Program-made: the position numbers and the translations under genes
The notes under the pieces: generated by a model
What the model was told of the DNA's origin: nothing
Database searches by the model: none
Seen by the model: the letters and a program-made list of their open reading frames with translations, nothing else
Shown here: in pieces, positions 34,072 to 53,300 of the stretch
Layout: each line of letters begins with the position of its first letter
Numbering within the stretch: position 1 is the stretch's first letter
DNA from: Lingula anatina
Taxonomy: Eukaryota; Animalia; Brachiopoda
Direction of reading: 5' to 3'
DNA length: 64,000 nt
Assembly (NCBI GenBank): GCA_051362555.1
Contig: CM120645.1
Coordinates: forward strand, 11,780,001 to 11,844,000

Positions 34072-40829
<6,758 letters not shown>

Positions 40830-41312
40830 AATTTCTCTAAAGTCGACGGTAAAATTAACACAAGTCGTGCCTTTGCGAATAAAACCTCACGTCCGCTTAT
40901 CTTTCCGTTCAATTTGATAAATTACCACATTTACTCTTAAGTTCCGTCAAATATGTGAAAACAATCTAATCCATGTGTTTATATGCCTTTAAACTCGGTC
41001 AAGGTGAAAGGCATGACGTACGTGCCGATAAACCAATCGATTTGTTTTTCGCAAACACACCCCTTTTTCACACAACTGCCCTCTAGCGGCGTCAACGTCA
41101 CCAAATTTATCGCTAGGAGTCCCGAGCCAGGGATAAGAAATTTGTTTCCAGTTAGTTTAAAGGACCAACAAAATATATATAATATTTATATGCTAAAAAT
41201 AAAACGAAGTTGTTTTCCGAGTATAAGGAAACGGAATCTTTGTTTCTACAGCTATCACTGCAGAGGACCGACATTTCTGCGGGGCTGATATGGACCTAGT
41301 TAGGAAAACGGC
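40830..41312. promoter_or_regulatory. Bidirectional promoter shared by CDA and NOC2L
   Basis: Divergent start codons at 40829 (-) and 41313 (+), ~480 bp apart. Locally CpG-richer, with tgacgt-like motifs. Confidence 0.7.
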
Positions 41313-44300
41313 ATGGCATCTGCTAAAAAGAGGTAAGGGATGTTTTTGCCCGTCTTTTTTTGATAAAGAAACTTTAAAACGTTCTTTCCATAGTATGCTC
41401 TTGTCATAAAGTCATGGGCTAATTATTATTCGGTTTGGTTTGTAAGGTCAGATCTTTAGCTCGAAATGGACATTGAATTAAACGTAAGTAAATTTCGCTA
41501 GTACTACCAGTAGTACTACTTGCACATGTACTACATGTAGTACTAACAGACTAATTTTGAATGAAGATTTATACTTAATATCACGCTTGCTGTCGGCCAG
41601 AATATGATCTCAGTTTTGTCCTATTTAAAAAAGAGATGGACAGATGAAACGAAAAAATAACAATGACAAAATAAACTACTGTACATTTCTCATCCCTGTA
41701 GTGCCAACGGGTATGTTTATGTCTCGATCTGAAAAGGCAGATCACATGACAGGACTGAAAGCGAGACTGACTGACAGATAGTTTTTAGCCGGACTTCTAC
41801 ATGAAAAGACGTGCTATCCAAGAAATTAAGAAAGTGACAATTTGGTTCAAGCTAAAGAGCTTTAAAGGTAAGAAACATACTATTACCTTAATTAGAATCC
41901 AAAGGGAATTCTACATTGGCGACGAGGAAGCACGAACTCACGTAGCTTTAGTAAAATTCAAAAAAGAAAAAATTGTGAGGACACGAGGTAAGTGGTGAAA
42001 GCGCCCGTCACTCGTGTATTAGAATTCACTCGGTCAGCGATATAACAATAATATACTGTCAGTAAAAGTGCTGTTAGTATTATTGTGTATTGTGTTAGTG
42101 TTATCTAGGTTGTTTTGTCTTTTTTGAATCTTATTTTTGGGTATTCGTTGTAATTTCGTTCAAAAGTGAACACTATTCTCAAAATGGCGGGTCACGTGGA
42201 TAGATTCTACATCAATTATGCCACTGACCTTCAACTTCAAGACATACCCGGTGTCACATCAGGGCAGGCCCGAATGTTATATTTGTTAAGAGCTCAAAGG
42301 GGTAACTTAACAAAAGATTTGGTAGAGGAATGGTTGGAAGTTCAGTTGTCTCCTTTAGCCCTTAGTGTGATAGACTTTTCCCCTAACCCTCATTTATCGG
42401 GGTCAGCAGATTCTAGGTCATCTTGGATACCAAATTTAGGTCAGAATTGGTTATGGCAATCTGCTAAAAAGTTGTTTAGTTGGGGGAAAAGGAAACCGAC
42501 TGTTTTAAATACAACAAATCCCTTTCAGTCTGTGGCTAAAAATTATGAGACTAGTGAAAGCACTTTTCTCAAAACTCCACCCCAGAGGAGACTTTTTCCA
42601 TCCAACCCTGAGGTTCAAAGGAACTCAACAAACCCTCAATTACAAAATGTTGCTGTCTACCCTGAGGTTCAAAGAAATCCGACTGGTTCAATTTTTCGAA
42701 ATGTTGCTGTCTACCCTGAGGTTCATAGAAATCCGACTGGTTCAAATTTTCAAAATGTTGCTGTCTACCCTGAGGTTCATAGAAATCTGAATGGTCCACA
42801 TTTTCAGAATGTTACATCCAATGTCAACCCTGAGGTTCAAAGGAACTCAAATATACCACATTTGCAAAGTTTTTCAACCAGTGTCAACCCTGAGGTTCAA
42901 AGGAACCAGACTAGTCCACATTTTCAAAATTTTTCAGCCAGTGATAACCCTGAGATTCAAAGGAATCTAATTAACCCTCATTTTCAAAATTTCTCAGCCA
43001 ACCCTGAGGTTCAAAGGAACCAAAATAACCCAATTTTTGTCAATTCAAATTTTGGCACTAATATTGCAAATACACCAGCTTTTCCCATTAACGCAATGGG
43101 AGGGGAGGATTATTATCATTCACAAGAATCCCCCATGCAAATAGATCAACCTACAATTCCAAACATTTCTGCATCTAGACGTATGGTATGCCCCCCTAAA
43201 AATCTAACTTTCAATGGAAAGACAAGCTGGGCAGCCTTTAAACTAGTATTTTTAAGGCACGCAGAAAGAGAGGGTTGGGATTCAAATATGTGCCTGGATG
43301 GACTTTGTTTATGCCTCAGTGGAAAAGCACAAGAGTGTTGTGTAAATGTGACCAAACGGGAAGGCATGTTGACCTACAAGGGCCTCTTAGAAGAATTGGA
43401 GATGTGCTATGGAGAAACGGATACACCAGTGACTGTGCGTTCGCGACTCCATAATTCACTACAGAGTGAAACTGAATCAGTGGATGAATGGGGTGTGCGC
43501 GTTCTAAGGCTCGCGTCACAAGCCTACCCCAGCTTGCCTAAATCATTTGTGGACTCAGAGGCTGTTAACAGATTCTGCGCTGGAATGTTGGATACAGAAG
43601 CTGGACAAGCCATTTACATGCAACGTCCTCAAACCTTACATGAAGCTATGCAATTAGCTAAAATGCATAGAGAACTTAAGGTCACCATGGAAACAAAGAA
43701 GGGGCGCACTATGACCAAAAGGGTTAATAGTGTGACACAACAGCCTGATATGAAAGATGAAAAGTCATCCAGTAATATCTCTGAGATGGTAACTTTTAAA
43801 GAAGAACTAGGAAATGTGCAAAAGGCACTTAAAGAAATAGCACAACAATTGAATCAAAGACCAATGACCAGTGGGGGTGGTGTAATTCAAAGGAATTATA
43901 ACCCCAATCCATCTTATGCAGGTAGAGGACGTGGCAGAGGTAGAGGGTATGTAAATTGTTTTTCCTGCGGAGCTGGAGGTCATTTTGCCAGAGAATGTCC
44001 ATCTAATCCACAGGGAAATGGCAGAGGGTCGGGGAAATAGGCCAACCCTCGACCCATGAATCAACAGGCCCAGACGTCAAGGAAAAGCCCTGCTTTAAGT
44101 CTCTTAAGAAGATGAATTCAGCACCCAGTCATTCCTCTCCATTAAAAGTAATGGAAGGAAATGAAATGTTAATGATGCAGAGAAAGAAAGAAGTCAAAAG
44201 TAAAGAGGGAAAACCAGCACCCAGTCATTCCTCTCCATTAAAAGTAATGGAAGGAGATGAGAATTTAATAATGCAGAGAAACAGAGAAGTCAAAAGTGAC

Positions 44301-47300
44301 AAATCTGTAATAGTGTTATGTAACATTGTTTCATCATCTTGCTTAACACTAAAAATACAAGTAGGAGATAAGAAGATTAAAGCTGTATTAGACACCGCAG
44401 CTGATGTAACTATATTATCAGACAGAGTGTATGAAAGTATGAAGAATCCTCCTAGAAAATTGAATGATGTGAAAATGTTATGTGCTGGACGCAAAATGAC
44501 AATGGAGGGATTCACAGCAGGGCCATTGAAATTAAAAATAGGAAATAAATGGTATCAAGAACAGGTGTATGTGGCACCCATAGAACAAGACATGTTACTT
44601 GGACTAGATCTTCTTACCCAAAGGGGTCGAGCTATAATTGACACCCAGAATAGAACTCTGCATTACGATGGCATGACATTAACCATGGATAATGACCCAA
44701 AGGGGACATCTCCACAAGTGGCAAGAGTAAAAGTACTCAAACGTCAAGTAATTCCTCCTAACTCAATTGTAAAAGTGCAATGTGTAATGGATGTGAATCT
44801 AATTGATTATGTCATTGAGCCAACAGAAGGGATGAAAGGTAAATTCCTAATACCTAGGGTAATTCGTAATGCAGGGACAGAGCCCATCATGGTACTAATT
44901 AACCCTAGTTACCGTCATCGCCTATTAAAGAAAGGTGCTGAAATAGGAAGGGCTTTTGTTTATGATCAAATAATGACGCCTGGGAAAGAAGAAGAGCAGG
45001 TAATGTTACCATCATGTAATACTTGCTATGATATATCAGAGCATAAAGATGCAACTAAACTAGCAAAGGCTACTTTAGAAAAACATGCAACTTCTAGGAA
45101 GGGAAATCCAGTCACCAAAAGGGTGAATAAAATCACCATAGATGAAAATGAGATCAATGATAAGATGTATGTACCACCCCACTTACAACAGGTGTTTAAA
45201 GAATCTTGCACTGAGCTAAAAGTAGGTCAGTGTGAGCAGTTGGCACAAGTACTGAGAGAATACCAGGACGTTTTCGCAAAGGATGAATTCGACCTAGGCA
45301 ATTTTACAGCGATAGAACATGTGATAGAGACTAGTGGTGCGAAACCTATAAAACAACGAATGAGACGGACACCAATTTGTTTTGCAGAAGAAGAAGGGGC
45401 CCACTTGCATAAGATGTTACAAGCTGGTGTGATTAAAGAATCTACATCAGATTGGGCATCACCTCCAGTGTTAATTCGAAAGAAAGACGGATCAGTTAGA
45501 TGGTGTATTGATTATCGTGCACTTAATGAAGTGACGGTAAAGGACGTGTTTCCATTACCACTGGTGGATGACTGCCTTGATACATTATCAGGTAATGTCT
45601 ATTTTTCCAAGTTAGATGCTAACTCAGCTTATTGGCAGGTACCAATAAGGGAAGAAGACAGGAAAAAGACAGCCTTTATAACCAAGTATGGCCTTTATGA
45701 ACATGTGAGGATGGCTTTTGGTTTATGTGGAGCACCTGCGACTTATGCCAGGATTATGAATCTAGTTTTTAGAGGAATGACATGGGAAACTGTGCTAGCT
45801 TTCCTGGATGATATAGTGGTTCTAGGAAAGTCTTTTAATGATCATTTAAAGAACTTAAGAGAAGCCCTCACCAGATTTAGAATGTATGGACTGAAATTAA
45901 AGCCTAAAAAATGTGCATTTTTGCAAAAGAAAATTGAATTTCTAGGTCGCACAGTAACAGGAGATACTCTTGCTGTATCAGATCATGATGTAAAAATTGT
46001 AAAGGACTGGCCAACTCCGCAAACTTCAAAGGAAGTAGAAAGATTTATGGGCCTAGCTAACTATCACAGGGCTTTTATTAAAGATTTCAGCAAAATTGCT
46101 ACACCATTGTATGCAGTGACTGGAAAGAAGAACTTCCAATGGGAAGAAAAACAGGAAGTAGCCTTTAATCGCTTAAAAGAAGCATTAACTACTCCCCCTG
46201 TTCTCGCAGTGCCAACGGGAACTGACGAGTTTATATTAGATACTGATGCCAGCGAATATGCCATAGGAGCTGAATTAATTCAGGTTCAGAATGGACAGGA
46301 GAAGGTGATTGCATATGGCAGTTATGGTCTCACTAAAGAGCAGAGACGTTACTGCACAACTCGTAAAGAACTACTGGCAGTTGTAAGATTCACTCGACAG
46401 TTCAGACATTACTTACTGGGAAAGCCGTTTAAAGTAAGGACTGACCATTCAAGCTTAAGATGGTTGATGAGATTTCGGGAGCCGCAGGGACAGTTAGCGC
46501 GATGGATGGAGGAATTATCGCAATATAATATGGTGTTATCCCATAGAGCGGGGCGTAAACATGGGAATGCTGATGCGTTGTCTAGAGTTAGCCATACCGG
46601 GCAGTGTGTCAACATAAGCACCAAAGGGCGGCTGGTTGACCTACCTTGTGGTGGGTGTGATTATTGTAAGCGGGCTCAGAAGAACTGGGCCAGGTTTGAA
46701 GAAGAGGTGGATGATGTGGTGCCATTGGCGACTCGGGGAGTTAATAGCCAAAGGGCAATAGACATCCAGGGTGAAGATTTCTCATCAGACCAAATATGCA
46801 ACAATGGCAAGACGGTCTATACAGTAACGGTAGACTCAGAAAGGGAGTATACTGAACCAGAAGTGCTGGGAGAAAGAGTAGATGGTATTCCAGAGGAAAG
46901 TATAGAAGATATGCCAGAATTTAAAGTTATGCAGTGCATAATTGACAACATTCCGTGGGATCCAGGAGAATTAATTCAGGTGAATATGGTAAAGACCAGT
47001 CACCAGGCACCAGGGGGAGCTACTCAGAAAGCTGATGATAGCTCTTCACAATTAACCAGTTGGGGTTATTCTGTTGATGAAGTGAAACAGGCACAGTCAG
47101 CAGACAGTGAGTTGAAAGTGATAATAGATTACAAAGTGGATGCTAATGAACCAGATCAGTCTATTCTATTTAGAGGCAGTCAGGCATTGAAAGCATACTG
47201 GCTGAATAGAGACCTGTTTACCATCATTAATGATATCTTGTATTGGTGTGATCCAATTAGTGAGGATAAAAGGTTAGCGTTACCCTCCAGTTGGCGTGAG

Positions 47301-50300
47301 GAGGCCATGAGGATGCATCATTGTTTACCATCAGCAGGGCATCAAGGAGCTAAAAGGACTAAAGAGCGCCTTAAAGAAAGATTTTACTGGTACGGCATGG
47401 GCCGTGAAATTGATAACTTTGTCATGGGATGCCCGAGATGTAATCAGAATAAAAAGTCATCAAGACAGGGAAAAGTCCCTCTTAGAGAATTCCAGGCAGG
47501 TGCACCCATGGAGAGAGTACACTTAGATTTCCTTGGCCCTTTACCAAAGACGGCTAAAGGAAATGAGTATATTTTAATGATGGTGGATCAATTTACTAAG
47601 TGGGTTGAATGCATCCCACTTCCGTCTCAGTCAGCTGAAGAAACTGCAAAGGCAGCTATAGATCAATTTTTCTCTCGTTTTGGAGTTCCTTTTGAAATTT
47701 TTACAGATCAAGGGAGAAATTTTGAATCAAAATTATTTTTAGAAGTGTGCCGGGTTTTAGGAATCTATAAAGCACGAACAACACCATACCGTCCCTCAAG
47801 TAACGGTCAAGTAGAACGCTACAATCGGACATTGATGGATGCAGTGAGGTGTTTTACAGAAAAGTCACAGAATACCTGGGATGTGAATTTGCAACAAATA
47901 GCTGGAGCATTAAGGGCTTCAGTGAACAGGATGACCGGATTCACAGCAAACAGACTAATGTTAGGTCGTGAGGTGAATGCACCCGCTGACTTAATGTTTC
48001 CTCAAAGGAGGATTAATAATGAAGATCCTGAAAATTATGCTGCACAGTTAGCTGAAGATATGAAGGAAGCACATGAGATTGCTCGCAGAAAGCTGCAAGC
48101 AGCCTCTAAACGTATGAAAAGAGATTATGATCTCAGGATACTGGAGAGAGCATATGAGGTTGGTGATGCAGTGTATATATTGGACACAGCAGATACTAAA
48201 GGCAAATGTAGAAAATTATGTCCACCGTGGAAAGGACCTGGAGTGATTGTAGCCAAATTAAGTTCTAACTTATTCCGAGTGAAGGTTAGAAATGCAGTGT
48301 TTGTGGCCAATCATGACCGACTTAAGCCGTGTAAAGACACGGAATTACCACAGTGGATTGGACATTGGAGGAAAAATCCAGAGAGTCATGCGACCCGAAG
48401 GGGTGATGACAGAGTCTACTGTAACTGCCGACAGCCATGGCACGGTAGATTTATGATACAGTGTGACTTCTGTGGTGAATGGTACCATGGCTCCTGTGTG
48501 AATGTGACTGCTACTGATGCCTTGGAGATTAATAAATATAAATGTCCGGATTGTTTACGCCGAGCAAAAGTGCTGGTGTAAAAGAATGTACATTATAGTA
48601 AAAGTACTGATTTCAAGGGACAAGTAGCAGAGGGAGGAGATCCTAGCAAAGGCTAGTATATATGTAGATCGGTTGGCACCAGAAATGTAATTTGTTTTTC
48701 AGGCCAGACTTGGTATGACCTGGTTAGATGGTCGTGGCAGGGGTGTAAGTGACATTCCTGACTGCGAGTACTATGTACACAGCCCTGAAAGTGAAGGGAG
48801 GTGTCTAGTAAGGTGGGGGTTCAATCTTTTTGGATAAAGAGGGGAAGAGTGTAGTGCCAACGGGTATGTTTATGTCTCGATCTGAAAAGGCAGATCACAT
48901 GACAGGACTGAAAGCGAGACTGACTGACAGATAGTTTTTAGCCGGACTTCTACATGAAAAGACGTGCTATCCAAGAAATTAAGAAAGTGACAATTTGGTT
49001 CAAGCTAAAGAGCTTTAAAGGTAAGAAACATACTATTACCTTAATTAGAATCCAAAGGGAATTCTACATCCCAGTGAAATAAAAACTTGTAGAAACTCGC
49101 CAAGCAAACTTAAATATTCCATGGTAAAATTTACCAAGTTTATTTTCCAGAAAGCTGGCCGAACTGTCTGTGGAAGAGTTCATGCAGCAAAGTTTTGACA
49201 CAGGGAGTGAGGACACAGACACACCTGGGACAAGCTCTGAACAGGGAACAAACCAACATGAAAGTAAAAAGAAGAAAAAGAAGCAGCTTAAGAAAAATGC
49301 TAAGAAAATAGAAAAGTATGGATTTACTCAACAGTTAGTGAATTAACCACTGCTTTATGAACGCATACTTTTTTTTTACCAAAATGAGAATGTTAAATCA
49401 TTGCTTGATTTTAAACTTTTTAGGGCTACTTTGAAGCTACATAGGGTAATATTAACATTTGAAATACAAAGTACAAGATGATGTTTGATATTATTGGAAT
49501 GATGTTATATGGGTTATCCCAAAATAATTTTATTTTTCAAAATAGAAAAAGTACTGTACACTTATTAAAGTTAGTATTACATTTGTTTTGATTACATATA
49601 TTAAACTGTAAAGAAGCAGTTTCATGTTTATTTGAAACACATATCAATGCAATGAAGTTTTTTTTTTTTTTTTTAAGTCAAGTTTCTGTTTTTCCTATGC
49701 CAATGCATGCCTTTTTTATTTGAACATCAGTTGACCATACAGCCTTTGCTGCCTAGTTAATTCTAATATAGTAGGGTACTACTCTAAAAATTAATTTATA
49801 ATTTAGAGGCAGCAAAAAAGTGGATCAGGATCCAAATCCATCATCTAAGAAAACTTCAGAAGCAAGCAAACATAAACAGTCGCTGGGAAAACTGAAGGAC
49901 AGTGATCCTGAGTTTTATGAGTTTCTGAAGGGAGAGGACAAGGAACTTCTGGACTTTGACTTGTCTGGAGATGAAGATGATGGTACAAGTGATGAAGAGC
50001 AGGTGCACAAAGTCCCCAGTAAGCTTGAGGTAATGGAAACATGTCCATGTCCCCATGTTTTAATCACTATGATTGTTTTATTCAATTTGCTCTAAGCATA
50101 TGTGACTCTAATCGTTTTGCTTATTATAAAAGATGGAGTTTCTTCAGATTAAAATGGTTTAGACTGGAAATAACATATAAGTTTTAATTGGTTATTTTCC
50201 TGGCACCATCAACACACTCTTTAATAAAAAATCACCTTCACAAGTTCCTGGCACTTACCTGTTATTAATTTTTTCCTTAATTTGGTTTAAGTGAAGTATA

Positions 50301-53300
50301 CATAGTAAATCATAATGTGAATAACATGAAAAATGTATGCTTACTAAAAGAGCATAGTAATTATCACAACCAAGAATACACAGAATACTATTTTACAAAG
50401 ATTTTTGTGAGAAACCTAGTACCCAGAAATTTTACTTTTTTTAGAATAAAAAAACTGTTTGTACAGTGCAACTACGTATGTGTCTGCAGGTACCCCTGAT
50501 GAGCGTTATTGGCTATGGATAGGATAAAGATAATTTACACTCTTTTCATTTACCACCAGGTTGCCAGTGATGATAGTGAGGGAGAGTTGTCCATCCCCAG
50601 CTCTGATGAAGATGAAAGTGAATCAAAGAAGAAAACAAAGAAGAAAATTTCAAGTCGTACTTTGGTCACTCTGAAGATGGTCAATCACTGGACACAATCA
50701 TTACAGGTAGTCAAAAAAATATATACTGTTGCAGGGTTAAGAAAAAGTATACGGTTATTACAAATACCAAGCTTTACACTTTGGGACTGAAAAAGTTGTA
50801 TGGGTCTCATGTAAGGCTCAAAAGGTCTCAATAAGTCCCAGTGAAAAAAAAAAAAAAACATTTCACAAGACACAGTCAAGATAAACAGGAAGTTTAGTCT
50901 TGCAGTGTTGAGGTGATCAAACAATATAGACACAGTCCTATATTAGCAAAAAGTTTGGAGGGTGACTCAGTAGTGAGAAAGAACTGTATTATAGTATAAG
51001 TAATCTTGCTGTGAACCATTAAGTGAGAAGTTACAATGGCACACTTTAGTGTACTATATGTTGTTGTTCCTTCAGGAGGGGTCTTCACTGTCCATCCTCC
51101 ATGATGTGGTGGCAGCATTCAAGGCTGCTGTGCAGCAAGCAGGGGGTGAGGATGACGCAGAGGTCAATAAGTACAAAGTAGAGGGCAGCACAGGTCAGTA
51201 TCCTATAGTTACTGTAACACTATCTTACACTGTAAATCTTTGACCTAATAGGATGTCTTACTGCCTAACACTTTTAAAGCAGTCATTATGACTTAATTTA
51301 TAAGAAAAAAATCCAAATCGAAATCATGCTGGAAAACCTGTTTTGATAAGAGATGGCTATTTGGTGTTGCTTTGTCATATGATCTAAGAAATGCATTTAG
51401 TTACACCATTTTGAGAAAATAGATGAGATGAATTCGAATTGGAGCAGTCAAAGTCAGTTTTGTTAATGATTTGCCATGAGATGAACTTGTCAATATGTTT
51501 TTATGGACTCTTGTATTAAATCAAATTGCATAGAGAGTGAATATCAGTAGTAAGTCAGTTGAGCTTGATTTTGTTAGAAAGCTCTCTTTGTACTTTGTTG
51601 AACAAACTGTCATTTTATAGTCCATACTTGTGTGAATGTACATGTTTACTTTAAGTTTTCATATTTTGTCTGTATTCCAGTTTTCAATGCCATTGTACGC
51701 CTGTGTTTAACTGAACTGCTACCAGCCTGGCGACATGTTCTAGCACTGCCAGAAACTAAAGAAAACAAGAAGCCACCTCTTCCTTCTACTAGTAAACAGT
51801 GGGCCAAGGTGCGACTGGATGTGAAGTTGTACCTCACAGAATTGATCAGGGTATTTTTTCGTTTTTATTTTTCATATTGCATTACAATACTTGATGTGAA
51901 AATACTAGTATATATTTACATGGCAAATTCATGAGATTAAATCTTTTCTCTGAAAAAATGTTTTGTTGTTAGTTTTCTTACAGTACTTGAATATTATTTG
52001 TATTAGGCACCTGAACTAATTGTCAGATTGTAGTACAGATTATGGCAGTTTCAAATTTTGAACAAAATTCTATCATATTTCCTTGTACAACTTGGCAGGT
52101 TGTGAAAAAAATATTATTACGCTCTCTGTCATTTGTTTTGTTGCATTTTTTCTTCCAAAGGATATCAGTTTTTCCGATGTTGTTAATAAAGAAAAATTTA
52201 AAATATTCATAATTTTAAAACCTTTTTCTTTTCCAGTTACTGAGTGAAGTGGGGGAATCTACCATTGTAAATATACTGCTGAAACATGTCCACCAGTTGG
52301 TGCCTTTTATTGCTTGCTTTCCAAAAGTGGCTCGTATTGTTGTCAAGGTGAGGGTCATAAGATGTCAAGGTCACCAGGTGTCAAGGTCACTAGATAGTCA
52401 GCAGGGGCTCATTTCAAAGGAAACCTGAGTTTAAATTTATTCACACACACAATATAAAAAACTAAAAACTGTGGTCTGTTTTATTCTAGGTCAGTTAGTA
52501 GAAGTTTACATTAAAAGTAGGGACTGTCTACCTGAAACAGTAGCCGATGCTCTTGTGAGACAGTTCTAATACCCTGGGGCCGGTTTCACAAAGCAGTAGT
52601 TAGTTATAACAACTAACTACTGAACTACCTCGCTAACGAGCAAACTTAGCGATTTTCGAGGGGTGTTTCACGAAGCAGTCGTTAACTCATCGCTAAGTTC
52701 AGTCGTAAAGTTCGGTCGTTAGTTCTCTCGTTACTCACCGTAGTCTCGAAACCGTCTGCCGGAAGAAGAACTCTTGCGTAAAAGTGTCACGAAAGCACTA
52801 ACTCTCCAATTTTTGGTGGCTGGAAATGCATAAGAACGTCTGCTTTGAGGTCGTCGTAAAGGATCTCCACCACCTTTTTGCGTCTCTTTTTGTCACAGCT
52901 AGGCGCAACCTCTCGTAAATTGCATCATCGTGTGTATATTCTAATAGATTCTGCCTTTCATGAAAACGTCGTAGTCTACGTTGCCGTCTGGCGGTACGGA
53001 TAGCAAGAAAAGTAGCCGCCATATTGGATACAAAGACAAACGACAGACAACGGTAACTAAGCAACCTTTTTATTTCACTCATTACGCATGCGTACGATGA
53101 AACTCTAGAGTTAGCGACTGGTCTGACCAGTCGTTAAATATCCAAGGCAACAACGAGACAATAACGAGCGAGAGAACTAGCGACTGCTTCGTGAAACGGC
53201 ACTATAACTAGCGATAGGCTAACTACCGATCGCTAACTAACTACTGCTTTGTGAAACCAGCCCCTGAAGACCACTAGTTTGTTTCTCACGTCTTTAAATA

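Follow-up and report, generated by a model that had tools for sequence, protein, structure and literature searches.

A Ty3/Gypsy retrotransposon with a predicted histone-reading PHD finger at the tip of its integrase, inserted beside a divergent promoter in Lingula anatina

We analysed a window of 64,000 nucleotides from the brachiopod Lingula anatina (assembly GCA_051362555.1, contig CM120645.1, forward-strand positions 11,780,001 to 11,844,000; coordinates below count from its first letter). It holds an intact Ty3/Gypsy retrotransposon, 41697-49068, whose integrase ends in a PHD finger. The element lies in sense orientation within NOC2L, starting 384 bp downstream of the ATG at 41313, beside a promoter that NOC2L shares with the divergent gene CDA (Table 1). 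The two genes were identified by their matches to a NOC2 homolog (E 3e-8) and to cytidine deaminase (E 1.9e-5). In RNA reads, mapped from about 6% of each raw run, 12 reads of run X12 join the end of NOC2L exon 1 at 41332 to 49151, which places the element in intron 1 of an expressed gene; CDA exon 1 is joined to exon 2 by 57 reads in X12 and by 6 in X15. The divergent promoter looks active. CpG observed/expected is high over the promoter region, falls to 0.0-0.35 in both gene bodies, and drops below 0.4 at the point of insertion. Unmethylated promoters flanked by methylated housekeeping gene bodies are an established invertebrate pattern, and we read the CpG profile in this way, with the insertion at the downstream edge of the promoter.

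The element has the hallmarks of Ty3/Gypsy: paired long terminal repeats (LTRs) with TGT..ACA ends, a primer-binding site, which we take to be of tRNA-Ser type, a polypurine tract and a short target-site duplication. Gag is followed by protease, reverse transcriptase, RNase H and then the integrase, with the catalytic motifs kept. Gag overlaps pol in the -1 frame, and the candidate heptamer in the overlap would allow Pol to be produced by -1 frameshifting. Gag matches zf-CCHC and, weakly, Ty3_capsid/PNMA in Pfam. It opens with an HHH_3 module (42193-42390) that is common to the clade, as seen from Pfam on the relatives' Gag and their alignment with the window Gag. Pol contains no chromodomain at Pfam E values up to 0.1 and carries the PHD finger instead, which sets the element apart from chromoviruses. 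Nor does it belong with Errantivirus, since pol is followed by only 268 bp before the 3' LTR begins, with no env open reading frame (ORF), and the third ORF of its relatives encodes a TatD protein. The 40-codon ORF in this interval has no convincing homolog among the related loci described below.

Table 1. Positions of the retrotransposon's parts and of the flanking gene features within the window
Feature	Position	Strand	Remarks
Target-site duplication TCCC (left)	41693..41696	+	Same four bases at 49069-49072; single copy in the empty alleles of runs X3 and X5
5' LTR, 219 bp	41697..41915	+	Identical to 3' LTR; splice-donor-like site at 41866
Primer-binding site	41917..41928	+	Begins TGG one base past the LTR; same start in relatives L041 and L055
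gag, 618 amino acids	42184..44040	+	Helix-hairpin-helix at the N terminus, then short repeats, a capsid-like region and a CCHC knuckle
Candidate -1 frameshift heptamer G GGA AAT	44013..44019	+	In the gag/pol overlap, read from the sequence
pol	44007..48581	+	1524 codons, fully open: protease, reverse transcriptase, RNase H, integrase, PHD
Integrase	47283..48356	+	H2C2 finger and D-D35-E core; the C-terminal domain, predicted beta-rich, bears a WKGP module
C4HC3 PHD finger	48414..48554	+	Cage residues Y1471, W1478, M1483, W1492; pol stop eight residues beyond
Short 3' region	48582..48849	+	Acceptor-like site near 48700, 40-codon ORF (48715-48837), polypurine tract; slot of the relatives' TatD gene
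3' LTR, 219 bp	48850..49068	+	Identical to 5' LTR
Target-site duplication TCCC (right)	49069..49072	+	Matches left copy
NOC2L exon 1, coding part	41313..41332	+	RNA reads spliced to 49151 (also run X4); frame open across the junction
NOC2L exon 2	49151..49315	+	Spliced reads; exons further on match NOC2 homolog
CDA exon 1 (far end approximate)	40804..40960	-	Splice at 40804 supported by 57 + 6 reads; cytidine deaminase match in exon 2 (35572-35696)
Divergent CDA/NOC2L promoter region, CpG-retaining	40500..41500		CpG observed/expected 1.2-1.6

The finger matches PF00628 over Pol residues 1472-1516 (E 4.8e-7, above the Pfam cut-off), and the Pfam match, the structural model and the structural overlay agree on a PHD fold with the full set of C4HC3 zinc ligands. 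A prior sequence-only reading of this stretch had proposed a complete finger after the integrase, an insertion just past the NOC2L start codon and an occupied aromatic cage. Its element and finger coordinates are exact by LTRs, duplication and Pfam; spliced RNA of both genes bears out the position beside their promoter. The cage of the PHF2 finger consists of Y7, Y14, M20 and W29 (excerpts of PMC9898751), and Y1471, W1478, M1483 and W1492 align to these four in that order. Readers of unmethylated H3K4 (H3K4me0) have no such cage (excerpts of PMC3241642).

The same surface is conserved across the family. In 127 family proteins a strict pattern finds 111 complete fingers, so that absence or degeneracy in relatives, which the sequence-only reading had named as counting against it, is not what is seen. 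M1483 and W1492 are both kept in 111/111 complete fingers, D1487 in 102, and position 1471 is Tyr in 95, Phe in 12 and His in 4; a separate set of 34 loci has the same invariant positions. The ratio of nonsynonymous to synonymous substitution rates (dN/dS) is 0.056 in the PHD versus 0.20 in the integrase core, figures that come from three pairs only and mostly from one. In an AlphaFold2 model of the integrase end (predicted local distance difference test, pLDDT, 84.6; predicted template modelling score, pTM, 0.55), the finger overlays those of BPTF, PPS, DIDO, KDM7A, PHF8 and PHF2 at a root-mean-square deviation of about 1 Å; this pTM does not define how the two domains lie relative to each other. 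Two observations pull the other way. The fourth cage position, 1478, varies among the 111 fingers (Trp 45, Asp 35, Tyr 17, Cys 8, others 6), with Asp mainly in the deeper branches of an IQ-TREE phylogeny, and 92 of the 111 have Gln where PHF2 has the Arg2-binding Glu22, so affinity or methyl-state preference may differ from that of PHF2. On balance, it is very probable that the finger reads methylated H3K4.

The fusion extends well beyond this element. A search with the integrase end returned 58 Pol homologs, 52 of them with PF00628; the other six comprise one with a frameshift at the finger start, one partial record, one distant element and three that may be gene-model artefacts or losses. 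A C-terminal profile gave 177 matches, with a PHD in all 120 among the matches listed, a count biased toward PHD carriers by a query that includes the PHD. Named hosts are the bivalves Pinctada, Ostrea, Mytilus, Pecten, Mercenaria and Dreissena, the gastropods Nucella, Haliotis and Babylonia, and the crinoid Anneissia. A pattern scan independent of the PHD yielded 94 loci from metagenomes and metagenome-assembled genomes (MAGs), the metagenome part being the best 80 of 135 stretches; viral contigs contained no relatives. Loci L078-L094 come from bacterial MAGs, 15 of the 17 from one Sedimenticola MAG, where retrotransposons are most likely host contamination.

An integrase tree of 125 rows (FastTree, midpoint root; a quick IQ-TREE was also used) was built leaving out loci of unknown PHD state and matches shorter than 230 residues, among them L073, apparently a broken member of the PHD-bearing L037 family. 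All 97 PHD rows sit together with five PHD-less protein records on one long branch (support 100); 22 PHD-less loci and P0060 fall outside it. Within the clade, integrases are 56-75% identical. The single PHD branch fits one gain of the finger, probably long ago and at the root of a clade of mollusc and echinoderm integrases. A tree of the PHD alone (49 columns) gives this history less backing: it lacks resolution and requires 6 changes, a result compatible with one origin. The finger would thus have been inherited, and was not captured by the window's element itself as the sequence-only reading had it.

That reading had also called the finger PHF8/KDM7-type. The likeness to H3K4me3 readers stands, as the fold matches H3K4me3-bound PHD fingers; the subtype does not. 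The first loop has 8 residues in 51/51 element fingers, one fewer than the nine of PHF2, PHF8 and KDM7A, and the family profile matches Drosophila Cfp1 best, gap-free and at 66 bits, by a small margin over PHF2 (63.7 bits). A shorter loop and a best fit to Cfp1 make the earlier label too narrow, and the loop, a one-residue gap and the prevalent Gln together speak against placing the family in the PHF2/PHF8/KDM7 subfamily. Asp occupies the fourth cage position in 35/111 element fingers, as it does in Cfp1. Donor searches returned element fingers and multi-PHD host proteins, with no host donor singled out. The finger probably came from one of the H3K4me3 readers in the Cfp1/PHF2-8/BPTF/DIDO group, with Cfp1 as best fit.

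Sister integrases outside the PHD clade end differently, in a mostly acidic, disordered tail of 70-190 residues. It bears a motif, (T/S)RxGR..P..LxD(Y/F), found in strict form in 11 and in loose form in 19 of 22 PHD-less loci (L073 dropped as broken); the strict form occurs near the finger in 0/47 PHD loci. Carriers of both acidic tail and motif include the PHD-less L005, L006, L008, L009, L043 and L055. The arginine motif of the tail resembles viral nucleosome anchors. Because the sisters carry this tail at the same place, the finger appears to have taken over a C-terminal slot that was already specialised.

Most relatives also have a third ORF after pol, with a TatD nuclease domain at its end (E 1e-27 to 1e-50 in Pfam; for example L001, L003, L005, L012, L017 and L080). 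TatD is present in 28 PHD loci, absent from one, and 17 are too short to tell; for PHD-less loci the numbers are 13, one (with a GDSL lipase instead) and nine. The window's family has no TatD gene, yet was recently active, and in run X1 its short 3' region joins the LTR directly at high depth. Third ORFs other than env are known from rotifers, without TatD (PMC5408684); literature searches aimed at a TatD third gene found no paper.

The insertion in NOC2L intron 1 is young and polymorphic. Its LTRs are identical, read and contig mapping finds an empty allele with a single TCCC in runs X3 and X5, and none of the contigs listed from six contig runs bridges the filled junction; run X2 has a different allele at the site. 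Given its youth, selection will have filtered the insertion little. Over the element, contigs reach roughly 1-5 times the depth of the flank, which suggests a family small in copy number. Internally deleted derivatives of the family occur in runs X1 and X3 (window 44995-48586 and 41928-45643). The raw RNA runs cover the element sparsely and, in the share mapped, show no splice joint between the donor at 41866 and the acceptor near 48700. Run X4 is labelled DNA and behaves as RNA, with a spliced NOC2L junction and the intron uncovered; its depth is about 50-400 over the LTR (41697-41915) versus 7.5 over the interior, and LTR-containing transcripts appear abundant in it. NOC2L intron 1 is itself variable over 41378-41696: X2 diverges from 41691, 5 bp off the insertion site, X3 and X5 are longer by 13-14 bases at 41378 and 41496, and the intron is possibly an insertion hotspot.

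What might a histone reader do at the tip of an integrase? In the mechanism that we propose, the mature integrase would retain the finger, which, on a linker of 15-20 residues, would grip the H3K4me3/me2 tail with Trp1492 and Met1483 facing the methyl-lysine and Asp1487 near Arg2. The integration complex would thereby be tethered to nucleosomes just 3' of active promoters, and more insertions would fall at the 5' ends of germline-expressed genes, where first-intron copies would be spliced out and hence tolerated. By analogy, the mechanistic plausibility of such steering is high: with an engineered PHD tether, HIV-1 integration within 2.5 kb of transcription start sites was 50.3% versus 3.8% of events (excerpts of PMC4176367). 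We lean toward the view that the integrase PHD tether biases integration to active promoters. A fuller account seems to us evenly balanced between right and wrong: that an old, undescribed animal Gypsy clade swapped a generic arginine-anchor tail for a Cfp1-like H3K4me3 reader and targets itself, without a host adaptor, to the first nucleosomes of germline-active genes.

The positional evidence for steering is mixed. By our estimate (assuming 25,000 genes and 1 Gb), a few per cent of random insertions would land no more than 0.5 kb from a start codon. Few of the 94 loci carry host flanks, most being LTR-collapsed circles or ending inside the element. Besides the window's element, L029 alone is an intact copy that retains host flank; an exact pair of motifs, which we take to be NRF1 and YY1, lies 1.3 kb from its LTR. 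This hint is weak, because the same motifs occur inside the LTR regions of relatives (L003, L080) and are absent from the CDA/NOC2L promoter. Several points count against promoter steering. For two broken copies that keep flanks, no promoter is visible at the site: L048 carries a nested long interspersed nuclear element (LINE), and L086 lies beside an NXPE-like exon. The CpG signal is not specific to promoters, since high observed/expected values are found in the gene array upstream as well. Many LTR elements favour open 5' regions, and one firm site cannot separate PHD steering from that general preference. Among 30-base flanks of other copies recovered from reads, one opens with CGCCATnTT (X2, probably also X4); this motif occurs four times in the window, including at the element's gag start, and is a post hoc observation of little weight. 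In 16 long fused gene models we found no host domains that reveal an insertion position.

Other roles for the finger can be set against this evidence. It might bind methylated H3K4 as a general chromatin anchor that serves efficiency or nuclear retention with little positional bias, the NOC2L site then reflecting open chromatin. Having only one firm site suits this idea, as does the fact that the finger replaced a tail whose arginine motif resembles nucleosome anchors. The arginine-anchor concept is set out in PMC9040877, which does not give the sister tail motif, and isolated PHD fingers bind with high-nanomolar to low-micromolar affinity (excerpts of PMC3241642). A reader of a mark confined to 5' regions should nevertheless bias position by mass action, as the engineered tether does, and the one firm young site fits such a bias; we therefore consider a pure anchor unlikely. 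Slightly less likely again is a finger that reads another state or partner, for instance H3K4me2/me1, found at enhancers and over broad 5' regions, or a non-histone protein that is methylated, with looser targeting of active chromatin or a regulatory role as the outcome. The Asp in 35/111 fingers, mainly in deeper branches, points in this direction, given that the cage Asp of PYGO1 is linked to a roughly 2-fold preference for me2 (excerpts of PMC3241642), and the PHF2 finger also binds methylated VRK1 (excerpts of PMC9898751). Yet Cfp1 shares the Asp and was crystallised with H3K4me3 (9c0o), and the window element has Trp at this position and so a full four-residue cage.

We regard as quite improbable that the finger is a structural or passenger zinc domain without a chromatin role and that it lies near a promoter by chance. 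The few clade members without a finger in protein records (P0057-P0059, possibly artefacts) would accord with a dispensable domain. The low dN/dS of the finger speaks against it, as does the invariance of surface cage residues, beyond the zinc ligands, across a clade with integrases as divergent as stated above. Reading of methylated H3K4 coupled to promoter-biased integration is thus the interpretation that we prefer.

Chromoviruses have the same Gypsy domain order and a histone-mark reader fused after the integrase GP module (Gao et al. 2008, cited in PMC6673714; bioRxiv 10.64898/2026.05.21.726589; both in excerpts). The present clade differs in having a PHD and not a chromodomain, in a predicted mark of active promoters and not of heterochromatin, and in being an animal clade with a helix-hairpin-helix Gag and usually a TatD third gene. 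In REM1 of Chlamydomonas the PHD lies outside the integrase, and across REM1, CR1 and Chlamys it occupies a separate ORF, ORF1, the reverse transcriptase or the endonuclease, whereas here it forms the tip of a DDE integrase. All three are PHD-encoding retroelements, CR1 through its ORF1 and Chlamys as a Penelope-like element (excerpts of PMC6673714 and PMC8557442); Rehavkus carries PHDs as well (excerpts of PMC8557442), and PHDs have been called widespread in retrotransposons and proposed to guide insertion (excerpts of PMC6673714). CopiaMBD of arthropods is likewise an LTR element that captured a host epigenetic reader into pol, proposed as an insertion guide; it is a Copia element that reads methylated DNA, and its binding was tested, whereas PHD binding here is predicted from sequence (excerpts of PMC6673714). 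Ginger1-9_HM has a Gypsy-like integrase with a PHD among its C-terminal domains, but is a cut-and-paste DNA transposon, one family of 16 listed, in which the PHD is paired with Ulp1; the excerpts of PMC2836005 contain no H3K4me3 cage analysis for it. An H3K4me3-reading PHD brings a DNA-cutting or -joining enzyme to promoters in the engineered PHD-LEDGF tether (PMC4176367), RAG2 (PMC3241642) and yeast Spp1 in meiotic breaks (PMC5828529; all in excerpts). Those systems are artificial or belong to the host and keep the reader on a separate subunit, whereas here a natural mobile element has it built into its integrase.

Our literature searches, whose scope did not extend to subscription journals, Repbase, Dfam or GyDB, so that a database remark may exist, found no paper that describes an animal Gypsy integrase ending in a PHD. 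The whole word 'PHD' was not found in excerpts of the mollusc and annelid LTR surveys PMC6238403, PMC8220671 and PMC8556966 or in the main text of PMC13524379 and PMC5890265, and excerpts of PMC13621724 and PMC10799480 gave nothing further on the fusion. A PHD-tipped animal Gypsy integrase is apparently a variant, so far undescribed, on the theme of integrases tipped with readers.

The built-in readers known from LTR elements, chromodomain and MBD, are described as steering to silent chromatin, and the promoter-seeking elements known to us rely on borrowed host adaptors. If our interpretation is right, one and the same slot at the integrase C terminus can be turned toward the opposite chromatin state, which would make this clade the active-chromatin counterpart of chromoviruses. 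It would then keep supplying insertions into the first introns of mollusc and echinoderm housekeeping genes, and recurrent regulatory polymorphism would be predicted at the housekeeping promoters of bivalves and gastropods. PHD families and tail-bearing sister families share animal groups and offer a natural comparison for reader-guided targeting. What the window contributes is an insertion, young and polymorphic, where a seemingly active promoter ends, together with the exchange of tail for finger and the resemblance to Cfp1. The clade also accounts for many PHD proteins annotated as 'uncharacterized' or 'NYNRIN-like'.

Elsewhere in the window, an open frame without Pfam support on the minus strand (52798-53133) resembles the start of a Harbinger-type transposase. 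The gene array upstream, at about 3100-32300, is a tandem series of at least 10 small genes for a peptide of roughly 100 residues that has a dibasic site and six cysteines, possibly in a saposin-like spacing; the 5 copies tested gave no Pfam match. Intron 1 of CDA contains a tandem duplication of about 570 bp (38600-39730).

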